Source: a phage
Assembly (NCBI GenBank): GCA_023732985.1
Contig: GCA_023732985.1_3946.1
Length of the DNA stretch: 64,000 bases
Reading direction: 5' to 3' (one strand)
How positions within the stretch are numbered: position 1 is the first letter of the stretch; every line of letters begins with the position of its first letter. Below are positions 57,851 through 59,487 of this stretch, in pieces. The notes beneath the pieces are model-generated. The model had not been told where the DNA came from and did not search any database. It worked only from the letters and a program-made list of their open reading frames with translations. Both the position numbers and the translations under genes were made by a program.

Positions 57851-59487
57851 TACGTCTATAAAGAATCCTTTCCCTTTCCTTTCCAGAATCTACCCCCACT
57901 GATTCGATAGAGACTATCTCATACCTTAAAAGCAATAACTCTATAGTCTATTCTATAGCCCCTTATCAAATCAACTTAAATAAAAGCCAATAACCCCAGA
58001 AAGGGGATGGCTCATTTAAACGCTCTATAAAGCTCTATAACAGCCTTATCAACCTAACTTAAGGGATTGCATTAACCCACTCTAAAAAGCCCTTTATAAA
58101 GCTTCCTATAGCCTTAAAAGAATCTTATAAGGGTGAAAGTTTATAGGCTGGCTAGTATCTTGTGAATAACTAAACAAACCCCTTGATAGTCACTAAAAAG
58201 TATGTTATAGGGGCTATAAAGTTACTTCAAAGTAACGTAAAAAAGGCTATAAAGTTACGTAAATGCTAGCCCCCTTAACATTTTCTTAACAATTTCTTAA
58301 CAATCCCTACATAGTTATGCTTTTAAGGCACTTGTTAGAGACATGTTAGCCCCTTGTTAAATCTCTGTTAAGACCACGTAAAAGCCTTGTAAGAGTCTTT
58401 GGCATAGCCTTTAAAGCCTCTGTAAAGCCCTATAAAGAGGTGTCTGTATAGTTGGGGTGTAATTACTAGGAAGAGACTTAAAAGAGCTTACAAGGAGCTA
58501 TAGAGAGCTTTTAAGAGGGCTATTTAGAGAATCACTAAGAGGGAAAGGGAACGATAAGAAAAGAGATAGTGACCATGTTAATAGCTTGTTAAAAAGATTA
58601 AACACTTGTTAGGAACTTGTTAATTATCCCTACAAAATAACTCTTTAAAATTAACTTGTTAGCTCTCGTTAGTTATCTGTTAAGATTCTGTAAAGACTAT
58701 TCAGCACTTGTTAGAAAACTGTTACAGCCTTGTTAGTTCTGTTAAGAATCTGTTAAGACCTTTGAAGAGTTGTTAAGAGCTTGAGAGAGTTGTTAAGGAA
58801 TTGTTAATGATATTTTAAAATTTTGCAAAGTACTTGTAAGGGAGCTGTTAAGGGCTACCAAGCAGATATACATCTTCTACAGATATTTTTCAGTCCCTTC
58901 AAAGACCCTAAAAAATGACTTGATAGTCCTATTTTATAAAAATTTTAAAATTCTGAATAATTACCTATACAGTCTTTTAAAAATACAGGTAGAAACAGGC
59001 TTATAAGATACCTTGTTAGTACCGTGTTAGACCTTGTGAGATAAGGTCTGTAAAGATATTCCTGTTAAGTTTGTTAAAACAGTCTATATAGAGGCTTAGT
59101 AATACCTAGTGAACACCTATAGAGAGTGTCATAGCTGACATAGAGATTAAGAGGTGTATAGGAGCTTCTAAGAGGGTATAGAGAGATGGTTAAGGTGATT
59201 GTATAGGTTGTTAAGAAGGCTTGTTAGAAGAGTGTTTAGAAGGCTTGTTAGAGGGCTAGTTAGAAGGGTTATACAGAGGGCTATTAAGCCCACTAGATAG
59301 TTACTAAGATACTATATAACTATATAGAGAGTAAGATTAAGAAGGATGTTAAGAAGGATAGATATTTTTATTCACATATGATGGTGACCCAGAGGTTGGG
59401 ACAACCGATAAAATTTTATAAAAAATATAAATTTCGTAAATTTTACTCAATAAAAAGCCCCCAATTAAGGAGGCTCTTAAGATATTT
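57851..59487. repeat. ~1.6 kb ORF-free iteron-rich region (CTATAAAG and YTTGTTAR short repeats)
   Basis: No ORF of 60 aa or more on either strand; dense irregularly spaced copies of CTTGTTAG / CTGTTAAG / TTGTTAAG and of CTATAAAG; flanked by convergent transcription units. Confidence 0.7.

Follow-up and report, generated by a model that had tools for sequence, protein, structure and literature searches.

The 160-bp terminal repeat of phage T7 is flanked by arrays of short repeats, named SRL and SRR, the function of which is itself unsettled; computed here for comparison, the T7 junction contains 13 copies of CCTAAAG and 19 of [CA]TAAAG within ~450 bp. In type II plasmid centromeres, such as parC of plasmid R1, about ten tandem units of ~11 bp at helical-repeat spacing, adjacent to parM and parR, are bound by ParR and nucleate a filament on one face of the DNA. 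Pac sites of the SPP1/SF6 type extend over a few hundred bp, with several direct repeats (three box pairs) around the cleavage and the small-terminase gene at the site; in small-terminase rings the HTH motifs are set about one turn of DNA apart, and pac DNA is thought to wind around the rings (PMC4737164). In Felixounaviruses, Bal31 digestion combined with run-off sequencing has demonstrated a direct terminal repeat (DTR) of 608 bp in UAB_Phi87 (PMC4837284), and one of 613 bp has been predicted in Ro111lw by PhageTerm (PMC6454146).

Here we analyze a gene-free gap (57851-59487) in a 64-kb stretch of phage DNA, hereafter the window. Judging from homologous records, the gap is almost certainly the concatemer junction of a Felix O1-like myovirus (Felixounavirus), comprising the genome terminus and its DTR. 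The Felixounavirus DTRs of UAB_Phi87, UAB_69 and Ro111lw share its locus, boundaries and length class, and constitute the same feature in other isolates, but the reports on them give length and position only. The DTR itself is already known, and it is the phased repeat array running across it that appears undescribed: in the literature searched, including the Felixounavirus DTR reports, we found no description of the CT-N4-AG array, its helical phasing or its boundary elements.

The longest ORF touching the gap encodes 51 aa (57780-57935, minus strand) and all others at most 41 aa, in agreement with a first-pass annotation of this DNA, according to which no ORF of 60 aa or more exists on either strand over ~1.6 kb. 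The same annotation had transcription converging on the gap, and this is indeed the arrangement observed, with flanking ORFs that end at 57787 (plus strand) and 59488 (minus strand) and an inward-facing intrinsic terminator on both sides. The terminator of the plus-strand cluster, or right arm (57823-57855, plus strand), is made of a 10-bp stem, AAAAGCUCCU/AGGGGCUUUU, followed by a U-run, and the segment containing it (57788-57862) folds at -27.2 kcal/mol (z = -5.2). The terminator of the minus-strand cluster, or left arm (59448-59478, minus strand), combines a 10-bp stem, AAGAGCCUCC/GGGGGCUUUU, with a U-run (z = -2.9) and is likewise recovered by a consensus scan. Both are inverted copies of one another (inverted repeat I2, 57823-57848 on the plus and 59453-59478 on the minus strand) and, as predicted from their sequence, this convergent pair is what keeps transcription of both arms out of the gap.

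Public records of relatives place the physical ends of the genome within the gap. At least nine independent records open on the same nucleotide (GCCCCCTTAAC..., window position 58269), among them those of SeKF_63, D4, H12, CRP22, NBSal004, ZX4221, I14.1 and E9, and in three of these the record's prefix is repeated exactly as its suffix (613 bp in SeKF_63, 581 bp in D4 and 694 bp in NBSal004). All three repeats map to 58269-58859, start with GCCCCCTTAAC and finish with GGGCTACC (window position 58859). With the same start base in at least nine records and the same end in the three checked, the ends are fixed and non-permuted. The feature annotated as 'DTR' in UAB_69 (618 bp) maps to 58267-58861, 2 nt off on each side, and in UAB_Phi87 the homologous segment corresponds to JN225449 15152-15765. 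The segment is carried twice in about 27 of 247 records and only once in the window, as expected of a collapsed assembly. Assigning the ends by homology, the virion DNA would start at ~58269 and end at ~58859, yielding a short, exact, non-permuted DTR of 591 bp on the plus strand. The unique DNA of the right end would then close with 57851-58268, and that of the left end would open with 58860-59487; in SeKF_63, D4 and NBSal004 the former segment adjoins the DTR upstream at the right end, and in records opening at the terminus the latter follows the DTR at the left end. Among the roles proposed in the first-pass annotation, a packaging or terminal-repeat region is thus the one that the relatives' records and the experimentally mapped relative bear out, since they put the ends and the ~591-bp DTR inside the gap. 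DTR length varies among isolates (about 580-694 bp), with an internal 80-bp duplication in NBSal004, and no claim is made that the two cut sites keep a constant phase on the helix because the length differences are not integer multiples of 10.5 bp.

The left DTR boundary, TTACGTAAATGCTA/GCCCCCTTAACA (58255-58280, plus strand; in boundaries, the slash marks the cut), puts the probable virion end between 58268 and 58269, and the right boundary, TGTTAAGGGCTACC/AAGCAGATATACA (58846-58872, plus strand), puts the other between 58859 and 58860, each within 2 nt. The left boundary sequence is conserved in three genera and recognisable in Erwinia phage phiEa21-4. On the right, SeKF_63, D4 and NBSal004 all finish in ...GTTAAGGGCTACC, the sequence AGGGCTACCAAG (58851-58862) is invariant in 12 genomes, and AAGCAGATATACA recurs unchanged in phiEa21-4. 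Three inverted TGTTAAG-type units, CCCTTAACA, TCTTAACAA and TCTTAACAA (58272-58303, minus strand), lie just inside the left boundary; they are picked up in inverted repeats I3, I4, I8 and I12-14 and are conserved across genera; phiEa21-4 has a like arrangement, with TTAACA copies at the left of a TGTTAA array. Inverted CTTAAC copies had been noticed among the repeats at first pass, and they do exist, but they amount to three and are limited to the 35 bp with which the terminal repeat opens. CCCTTAACA (58272-58280) and TGTTAAGGG (58846-58854), the latter located just inside the right boundary, are exact reverse complements, so that the same 9-bp element stands in mirror orientation just inside each boundary cut.

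The gap is occupied by repeats that share the frame CT-N4-AG, a self-complementary 8-bp pattern with 62 copies against 11.4 +/- 3.2 expected (z of about 16). Frames with three or five central positions are depleted (2 and 4 copies, respectively, against 11.5 expected), and the three 500-bp bins densest in CT-N4-AG across the whole window all fall in the gap. Compared to dinucleotide-preserving shuffles, individual variants are present far above expectation: CTTGTTAG occurs 8 times (0.04 expected), CTGTTAAG 6 times (0.07), TTGTTAAG 3 times (0.07), CTATAAAG 5 times (0.17) and TGTTA[AG] 26 times (1.9). Counting both strands, the 62 kb outside the gap contain CTTGTTAG a single time, against 8 copies inside it, and TGTTA[AG] is strongly biased towards the plus strand (26 copies, against 3 on the minus strand). 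The first-pass annotation would have been refuted by heptamer frequencies in line with base composition, and these excesses show that they are not. Its description of the array requires revision in several respects. The dozens of copies it reported hold for the degenerate family, whereas exact copies of the three 8-mers it named total 17; the two repeat families it distinguished are variants of the single CT-N4-AG frame; and the spacing it took to be irregular is quantised at ~10.5-11 bp, the helical repeat of DNA.

This quantisation is evident in nearest-neighbour and pair distances between units, which cluster at 10-12, 21-22, 32-33 and 42-43 bp, and in the top Fourier period of the units, 10.49 bp, which exceeds that of all 1000 random placements. 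CT, AG and AAA/TTT are each phased above all 280 control windows, while generic S/W and GG/CC phasing in the gap is non-significant. Wedge-model curvature is mildly raised (6 of 280 controls are as high), a value to be read as indicative only. Intrinsic curvature was considered as an explanation for the periodicity and set aside on these grounds. Because generic S/W phasing is non-significant and curvature mild, the periodic signal can be ascribed to the motif itself, as expected for sequence-specific binding.

By segment, the units are distributed as 14 in the right-end flank, 29 in the DTR and 18 in the left-end flank. The right-end unique flank (57851-58268, plus strand) has 33.5 units per kb, against 8.9 per kb elsewhere in the window, and A-rich cores (CTATAAAG, CTTAAAAG, CTAAAAAG) in 9 of its 14 units. 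The terminal repeat (58269-58859) is the densest part of the array, at 49 units per kb. In the left-end unique flank (58860-59447, plus strand; 28.7 units per kb), most units are CTTGTTAG or CTGTTAAG with G-rich spacers, and GC skew reaches +0.47. A single clean polarity switch, put forward by an EM orientation model, was downgraded after model-free tabulation, which shows blocks and tendencies only.

In 11 relatives from three genera the unit count stays between 53 and 63, at 74-79% identity, and conservation across the three genera extends to the array, the number of its units, the whole-unit character of its indels and both boundary sequences; phiEa21-4 carries a variant array of like layout with recognisable boundaries. 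Searching IMG/VR with the boundary 16-mer ACYAAGCAGATATACA yielded 30 true relatives and no lineage beyond Ounavirinae; 47 of the 77 matches arose by chance and were used as a negative control. Unit density is 30-41 per kb in all 29 Felix/Moogle/Susp-like contigs of this set, and 0-8 per kb among the 47 chance matches. The flanking 197-aa protein, used as a query for more distant relatives, returned just the ~254 records already known. Alignment of the window with the 11 relatives (12 genomes, three genera) identifies eight blocks of 12-22 nt that are invariant in all 12, the longest being a 22-nt block, CTTAAAAGAATCTTATAAGGGT (58113-58134, plus strand). Conserved blocks in the left-end flank are found at 59078-59094, 59141-59152 and 59304-59319. 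An AT-rich conserved block (CTATTTTATAAAAATTTTAAAATTCTGAATAATTAC, 58929-58964) has a diverged direct copy at 59413-59446 (direct repeat D15, 34 nt, 76% identity); 58929-58947 and 59411-59422 are invariant in the 12 genomes, and the block at 58929-58964 contains only weak promoter-like matches (9/12).

Architecturally, the junction resembles that of T7, which also has a short exact DTR and a short repeat in one orientation, running from the right unique DNA through the terminal repeat into the left unique DNA, with a motif ending in AAG and repeats concentrated at this one genomic site. The likeness is architectural only, since the motifs are non-homologous and the T7 frame, CT-N2-AG, is not enriched in the gap (9 copies against 11.4 expected). 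T7 units are spaced at ~13 bp or multiples thereof, and number ~20 over 0.45 kb, compared to ~10.5-11 bp and ~60 over 1.6 kb here. Promoters A0, phiOL, phiOR and A1-A3 lie in or beside the T7 region, whereas here terminators insulate it, and T7, a podovirus, possesses a known small terminase in gp18, whereas none is recognised in this myovirus family. Pac sites of the SPP1/SF6 type are similar in having several direct repeats around the cleavage and contacts about one helical turn apart (PMC4737164), but they belong to headful packaging with permuted ends, as opposed to exact fixed ends, and they are far shorter than the ~1.6 kb seen here, where no small-terminase gene is known. The R1 parC centromere shares the ~11-bp helical-repeat spacing and provides a useful structural model for how the array could be read, but it has ~10 units instead of ~60, no partition genes are seen near the array, and a lytic phage has no evident need of partition.

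Taken by itself, the proposal that the array is a cis-acting signal for packaging or end maturation has, in our estimate, an even chance of being correct; for the full statement, which joins terminus, DTR and array-guided packaging, we see a slight balance of probability in favor. Under this proposal, the ~60 helix-phased CT-N4-AG units would serve as binding sites for a phage protein that coats one face of the DNA across the junction. The binder would be either the terminase itself or a DNA-recognition partner yet to be recognised, the latter being proposed because no small terminase can be identified in the family. Once assembled, the protein-DNA complex would single out the junction as the one site of packaging and direct the nuclease to the boundaries GCTA/GCCCCCTTAACA and TGTTAAGGGCTACC/AAGCAG. 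The single repeat copy of the concatemer would then be duplicated by synthesis, as is established for T7-type phages, leaving a copy at both ends of each packaged genome. That CT-N4-AG reaches the density of the gap nowhere else in the window supports a site-specific signal. Conversely, CT and AG columns are just 1-5 points better conserved than the spacers, so that constraint does not concentrate in the motif in the way that a simple model of sites predicts, and conservation of the gap is unexceptional genome-wide, with 20-32% of same-size windows at least as conserved. To our knowledge, moreover, ~60 sites over 1.6 kb go far beyond the needs of any characterised terminase recognition site. 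A more specific version of the packaging reading, which we put forward tentatively and regard as possible but on the unlikely side, is that the array represents a new type of packaging-recognition element for a family without a conventional small terminase, its sites nucleating a one-sided filament or superhelical wrap and the mirror elements CCCTTAACA...TGTTAAGGG setting both cuts. If so, the reader protein would be the missing DNA-recognition component of terminases of the Felix O1 type, and possibly of rV5-type and archaeal-virus-like ones.

A binding array for a phage DNA-binding protein, another role suggested at first pass, is compatible with these data and forms part of the packaging mechanism, but no binder was identified. 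The HTH protein suggested as a candidate (12138-12464, minus strand) belongs to the generic Cro/C1-type regulators and shows no connection with the array. TerL and portal lie outside the 64-kb window. The Felix O1 paper reports TerL only and no small terminase, and the three phiEa21-4 genes that lie upstream of TerL were assigned to DUF7217 or to no known function. The TerL closest to that of Felix O1 is found in rV5-like phages.

At both virion ends, non-coding DNA rich in repeats would precede the first gene over at least 1 kb, and the genes of both arms point to the ends and are terminated before them, so that nothing need be expressed there. Together with conservation of the region across genera, this layout would also suit an array that serves DNA ejection, entry or end protection instead of packaging, as a non-coding 'leader' that binds a virion or early protein against host exonucleases or that pauses or regulates transfer. 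In the terminal repeat of T5, a non-coding 'injection stop' region with many repeats has been proposed to pause or regulate DNA transfer in this manner. We consider this reading unlikely. The array is continuous over the junction and on the same strand in both flanks, which makes it asymmetric with respect to the two ends, unlike what pure end-binding would suggest; two-step DNA transfer is unreported for Felix O1-like phages in the literature searched, and no candidate protein was found.

Turnover of the array bears on whether it has a function at all. Indels correspond to whole units (nine of 11 nt, 17 of 21-25 nt and none of 7-10 nt), as slippage predicts, and DTR length varies (581-694 bp, including the 80-bp duplication in NBSal004). 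Between the window and Moogle, 37 unit positions are shared, and 25 and 23 are lineage-specific, for totals of 62 and 60. This turnover of unit positions and the near-equal conservation of motif and spacer columns are what one would see if the array were a functionless, satellite-like by-product of slippage or unequal recombination at the junction, tolerated where there is no gene, with only the boundaries functional. Several observations nonetheless render a neutral by-product quite improbable. Unit number stays at 53-63 in three genera despite turnover of about 40%. The gap is 78.8% identical to Moogle over its full length, which equals average coding DNA and exceeds the flanking genes (65% and 50%) and their third codon positions (52% and 33%). 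The eight invariant blocks argue in the same direction, as does the recurrence of the block order of A-core and T-core units in other genera, and a strict 8-bp frame with long-range 10.5-bp phase coherence is not expected of neutral slippage alone.

Clustered direct repeats with conserved AT-rich blocks nearby are also characteristic of plasmid and phage iteron origins, and the first-pass annotation had listed an origin with iterons among its candidates. In such an origin, the short repeats would be the iterons and the AT-rich blocks (58929-58964, 59405-59446) the unwinding elements. Two 1-mismatch DnaA-box-like 9-mers (1.2 per kb, against 0.34 per kb in the window) favor this assignment, as does the precedent of T7, where secondary origins adjoin the terminal repeats and phiOL and phiOR are annotated. 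It remains an unlikely assignment. About 60 copies of an 8-bp unit over 1.6 kb differ in size, number and extent from the few 17-22-bp iterons of known origins. The gap contains no IHF core and no convincing DnaA sites, and no initiator-like gene is adjacent, the flanking genes being without Pfam match and all falling in PHROGs of unknown function. The cumulative GC-skew analysis suggested at first pass places the locus at the maximum, where skew follows gene strand and gives no origin signature; the minimum, with divergent transcription, is near 20-21 kb. Finally, the physical ends map here, and alone account for the absence of genes.

That the gap encodes a missed long non-coding RNA, as the first-pass annotation had considered, or a spliced or frameshifted gene is highly improbable: fold energies on the two strands are somewhat below shuffles (z = -2.5 and -1.9) and some public records call ORFs of 25-50 aa in the gap, but the abundance of short inverted repeats leads one to expect a modestly stable fold, an Rfam scan of 56000-61000 at E <= 1 returned a single match, a chance Phe-leader over the terminator, sigma-70 promoter-like sites in the gap are at background (10 against 7.1 +/- 2.9, none better than 9/12), the longest ORF is short, the terminators face inward on both sides, indels among close relatives (11, 22 and 25 nt) are not multiples of three, and it is within this region that the virion DNA is physically interrupted.

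Reading the gap as terminus and DTR explains an unannotated 1.6-kb hole in Felix O1-like genomes. Felixounaviruses find broad application in Salmonella and E. coli typing, in biocontrol and in therapy cocktails, and both their engineering and the rebooting of their genomes, in vitro or in yeast, call for the ends to be right. The array provides a well-defined, conserved and helically phased cis element in a family without a known terminase DNA-recognition subunit, and the putative reader of a packaging signal is therefore amenable to testing with a short DNA bait. The boundaries GCTA/GCCCCCTTAAC and GGGCTACC/AAGCAGATATACA allow true ends and DTR to be annotated in more than 200 arbitrarily opened public records, and the small ORFs called in the gap can be flagged as spurious.

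The gap, an ORF-poor interval at 57851-59487 between convergent transcription units of a Felix O1-like myovirus (Felixounavirus), matches 256 phage records, 185-198 of which cover at least 80% of the region. Five of them (SeKF_63, D4, H12, CRP22 and NBSal004) have as base 1 the position equal to window 58269, and the ZX4221, I14.1 and E9 records also open there. In all three relatives checked (SeKF_63, D4 and NBSal004) the first 613, 581 and 694 bases, respectively, exactly equal the last, and these repeats begin with GCCCCCTTAACATTTTCTTAACAA, finish with GTTAAGGGCTACC and map to 58269-58859. 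The UAB_69 record carries an annotated 618-bp 'DTR' (direct terminal repeat) mapping to 58267-58861. A 608-bp DTR was shown in UAB_Phi87 by Bal31 digestion and run-off sequencing (PMC4837284), the homologous segment being JN225449 15152-15765, and a 613-bp DTR was predicted in Ro111lw by PhageTerm (PMC6454146); the Felix O1 paper went no further than to infer 'short terminal repeats'. Based on record starts, exact end repeats and the DTR reports in relatives, the gap is the concatemer junction, composed of right-end unique DNA (57851-58268), the DTR (58269-58859; 591 bp by homology, ± 2 nt) and left-end unique DNA (58860-59487), and sequence comparison places both the physical ends and the DTR within it. 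The DTR segment occurs twice in ~27 of 247 records and once in the window, as expected from an assembly that collapsed the repeat; the window's assembly is circularly collapsed across the genome ends. There is nothing unusual in what the gap is, since the felixounavirus DTR is already known and one record even annotates it here.

The DTR of NBSal004 (MN994503.1) spans 694 bp, not ~580-618, owing to a duplication of ~80 bp inside it, with an offset of 49 bp, and in KP869113 (typing phage 15, 92.6 kb) the alignment of the region is split into three segments that cover a longer interval. The genus thus shows plasticity in DTR length. GU169904.1 ('Staphylococcus phage SA1', 147 kb) contains a Felix O1-type terminal repeat at 135884-136463 (87.7% identity) and most probably results from chimeric or mixed assembly. 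Draft records KC139640.1 (FSL SP-107, 37,993 bp) and JX181814/JX181816 (SBA-1781) break in or beside the region, with matches stopping ~200 bp from the contig end, which is consistent with assemblers failing at a double-coverage terminal repeat.

The over-representation of short repeats reported by the first-pass annotation was confirmed against dinucleotide-preserving shuffles, with counts far beyond expectation for CTTGTTAG (8 observed, 0.04 expected), CTGTTAAG (6, 0.07), TTGTTAAG (3, 0.07), CTATAAAG (5, 0.17) and TGTTA[AG] (26, 1.9); the refuting condition proposed there, a frequency that base composition would explain, thus did not hold. The two families proposed there are, instead, variants of a single 8-bp frame, CT-N4-AG, of which the gap holds 62 copies, or units, versus 11.4 ± 3.2 expected (maximum of 21 in 1000 shuffles), while the neighboring CT-N3-AG and CT-N5-AG frames are depleted (2 and 4 versus ~11.5). 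The three densest 500-bp bins for units in the whole 64-kb window fall in the gap, and CTTGTTAG, of which the gap has 8 copies, is found a single time in the other 62 kb (both strands). Nor is the spacing irregular, as had been thought: unit distances fall into groups at 10-12, 21-22, 32-33 and 42-43 bp, and Fourier analysis of unit positions peaks at 10.49 bp, with a signal above that of all 1000 random placements. The phasing of CT, of AG and of AAA|TTT was in each case stronger than in all 280 same-length windows drawn from the remainder of the 64-kb window, whereas generic G+C and A+T phasing was not significant (139 and 44 of 280 controls as strong), and the periodicity therefore belongs to the motif. 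General bendability does not account for it: wedge-model curvature, as an indicative estimate, is only mildly raised (21.4 versus 18.0 ± 1.3 degrees; 6 of 280 controls as high).

The array of units extends over the three segments of the junction, with 14 units in right-end unique DNA, 29 in the DTR, which is the densest segment (49 units per kb), and 18 in left-end unique DNA. TGTTA[AG]-type units lie on the plus strand in 26 cases and on the minus strand in 3, and these 3 inverted copies are all confined to the opening 35 bp of the DTR (58272-58303). The DTR, which starts GC-CCCTTAACA and ends TGTTAAGGG-CTACC, therefore carries, immediately internal to both inferred cuts, copies of one 9-bp element that mirror each other. 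A-rich cores (CTATAAAG, CTTAAAAG) make up 9 of the 14 units of the right-end flank, and T-rich cores (CTTGTTAG, CTGTTAAG) dominate elsewhere (14 of 21 units in the later DTR). A polarity switch near 58200, put forward by an EM orientation model, was downgraded: model-free tabulation gives blocks of like units instead, in an order repeated in Felix O1, SUSP2, Moogle and Sf13, and this block arrangement along the junction is a tendency only.

We aligned the window with 11 relatives, including Suspvirus SUSP2, Mooglevirus Moogle, Sf13 and Mordin (~74-79% identity). The relatives hold 53-63 units, again with depleted N3 and N5 frames. Between the window (62 units) and Moogle (60), 37 positions are common, 25 window-only and 23 Moogle-only; the total is preserved although single copies are gained and lost. 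Indel lengths correspond to whole units (11 nt, nine times; 12 nt, twice; 21-25 nt, 17 times; 32 nt, once; 7-10 nt, never), which rules out a reading frame across the gap. All 12 genomes share eight invariant blocks of 12-22 nt, one of which (AGGGCTACCAAG) spans the right DTR boundary, and the left boundary is likewise conserved. Identity to Moogle is 0.72-0.76 for the gap, 0.65 and 0.50 for the flanking genes and 0.52 and 0.33 for their third codon positions; a flanking 197-aa protein retains 47% identity. Genome-wide, the gap shows 78.8% identity at full coverage versus a mean of ~77.8%, a level of conservation equalled or exceeded by 20-32% of windows of its size, so that its conservation is that of average coding DNA, which is noteworthy in a non-coding stretch without being extraordinary. 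Conservation of the CT and AG columns exceeds that of the spacers by only 1-5 points, and constraint thus extends along the entire sequence. Moogle and SP116 (Felixounavirus), but none of the 10 other genomes, share an identical 24-nt insertion, ATGAGGTAGATTCTACCGAATCAA, just right of 58874 and 15 nt beyond the right DTR boundary, which hints at recombination between genera in the terminal region.

In Erwinia phage phiEa21-4 (Kolesnikvirus), a syntenic gap of 1.2 kb (16472-17659) shows the same plus/minus convergence and layout: ~11 CTTCTAA[AG]-type units, inverted TTAACA copies and ~12 plus-strand TGTTAA units, in that order. Its boundary sequences are homologous, with AAGCAGATATACA identical. 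The TGTTAAG element and the boundaries are thus subfamily-wide, the unit of the other flank differing. Scanning IMG/VR for ACYAAGCAGATATACA yielded 77 loci and no further lineage, split cleanly into 30 true relatives (one of them phiEa21-4-like, the other 29 having 8-22 TGTTAR copies upstream and a density of 30-41 units per kb) and 47 chance matches, which served as negative control (0-8 units per kb).

A unique, phased and conserved array covers the junction, and we infer that it acts in cis as a signal for packaging and end maturation, given the precedents of T7 and of small-terminase rings. T7-type phages duplicate by synthesis the single concatemer copy of their terminal repeat. In T7 itself we computed 13 CCTAAAG copies, spaced ~13 bp and in one orientation, running, like the gap array, from right-unique DNA through the repeat (160 bp) into left-unique DNA. 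The role of such T7 arrays is itself unsettled, and ~60 sites is, to our knowledge, far above the number used by known recognition sites. In ring-shaped small terminases, HTH motifs are separated by roughly one turn of DNA, and the rings are believed to wrap pac DNA (PMC4737164). In the gap, unit after unit along one helix face would be occupied by a phage protein, which would mark the junction as the sole packaging site and position a nuclease at both mirror-image boundary elements; T7-type duplication of the lone DTR copy in the concatemer would follow. No candidate array-binding protein was identified, TerL lying outside the window and the flanking genes having unknown function, and the family has no recognisable small terminase (Felix O1 paper; genes upstream of TerL in phiEa21-4). 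The HTH protein suggested earlier as a binder (12138-12464, minus strand, 109 aa) turned out to be a Cro/C1-type regulator (HTH_3, PF01381, E = 6e-10; PHROG 1373) with no link to the array; its Moogle homolog is annotated as a transcriptional regulator. In architecture, the array, its phasing and the boundary elements belong among the T7-style junction repeat arrays. The papers searched make no mention of the CT-N4-AG array, helical phasing, whole-unit indels, mirror-image boundary elements or subfamily-wide conservation. Should the array prove to be what a terminase system without a small subunit recognises, the finding would gain interest.

A role in DNA ejection or end protection would suit terminal kilobases that are non-coding, but we consider it unlikely, as the array keeps one strand and is continuous across the junction. 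Somewhat less probable is a functionless slippage tract, which could produce whole-unit indels and length variation; against it stand the maintained unit number, the invariant blocks, the strict CT-N4-AG frame and the conservation of the gap. We give still less credence to a replication origin, as no initiator gene, host-factor sites or skew signature was found at the gap. Gene strand and GC skew switch at ~9-10 kb and ~20-21 kb, and the latter, a point of divergent transcription and a cumulative-skew minimum, is more origin-like than the gap. A hidden gene or ncRNA is very improbable given the whole-unit indels, a longest ORF of 51 aa, terminators on both flanks, no convincing Rfam match and no promoter excess in the gap.

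The packaging-signal reading concerns an interval that, as first described, contains no long ORF and is flanked by plus- and minus-strand ORFs ending at 57787 and 59488; public records leave it without annotation or call tiny ORFs. Transcription is terminated on both sides by intrinsic terminators, hairpins with a U-run at 57823-57848 (plus strand, z = -5.2) and 59453-59478 (minus strand, z = -2.9) that are inverted copies of one another (I2). Within the right-end flank, a further leftward terminator-like hairpin (57993-58008, minus strand; AUCCCCUUUCUGGGGU plus a U-rich tail, z = -2.3) has no minus-strand gene upstream inside the gap. A ~44-nt leader, ctccctactaaataaaaccttaaactaggagattctaaaatggc (57501-57544), containing a ribosome-binding site and start codon, is repeated at 85-93% identity (secondary BLAST hits) before several small plus-strand genes of the cluster ending at the gap, suggesting a recurrent regulatory or recombination cassette boundary.
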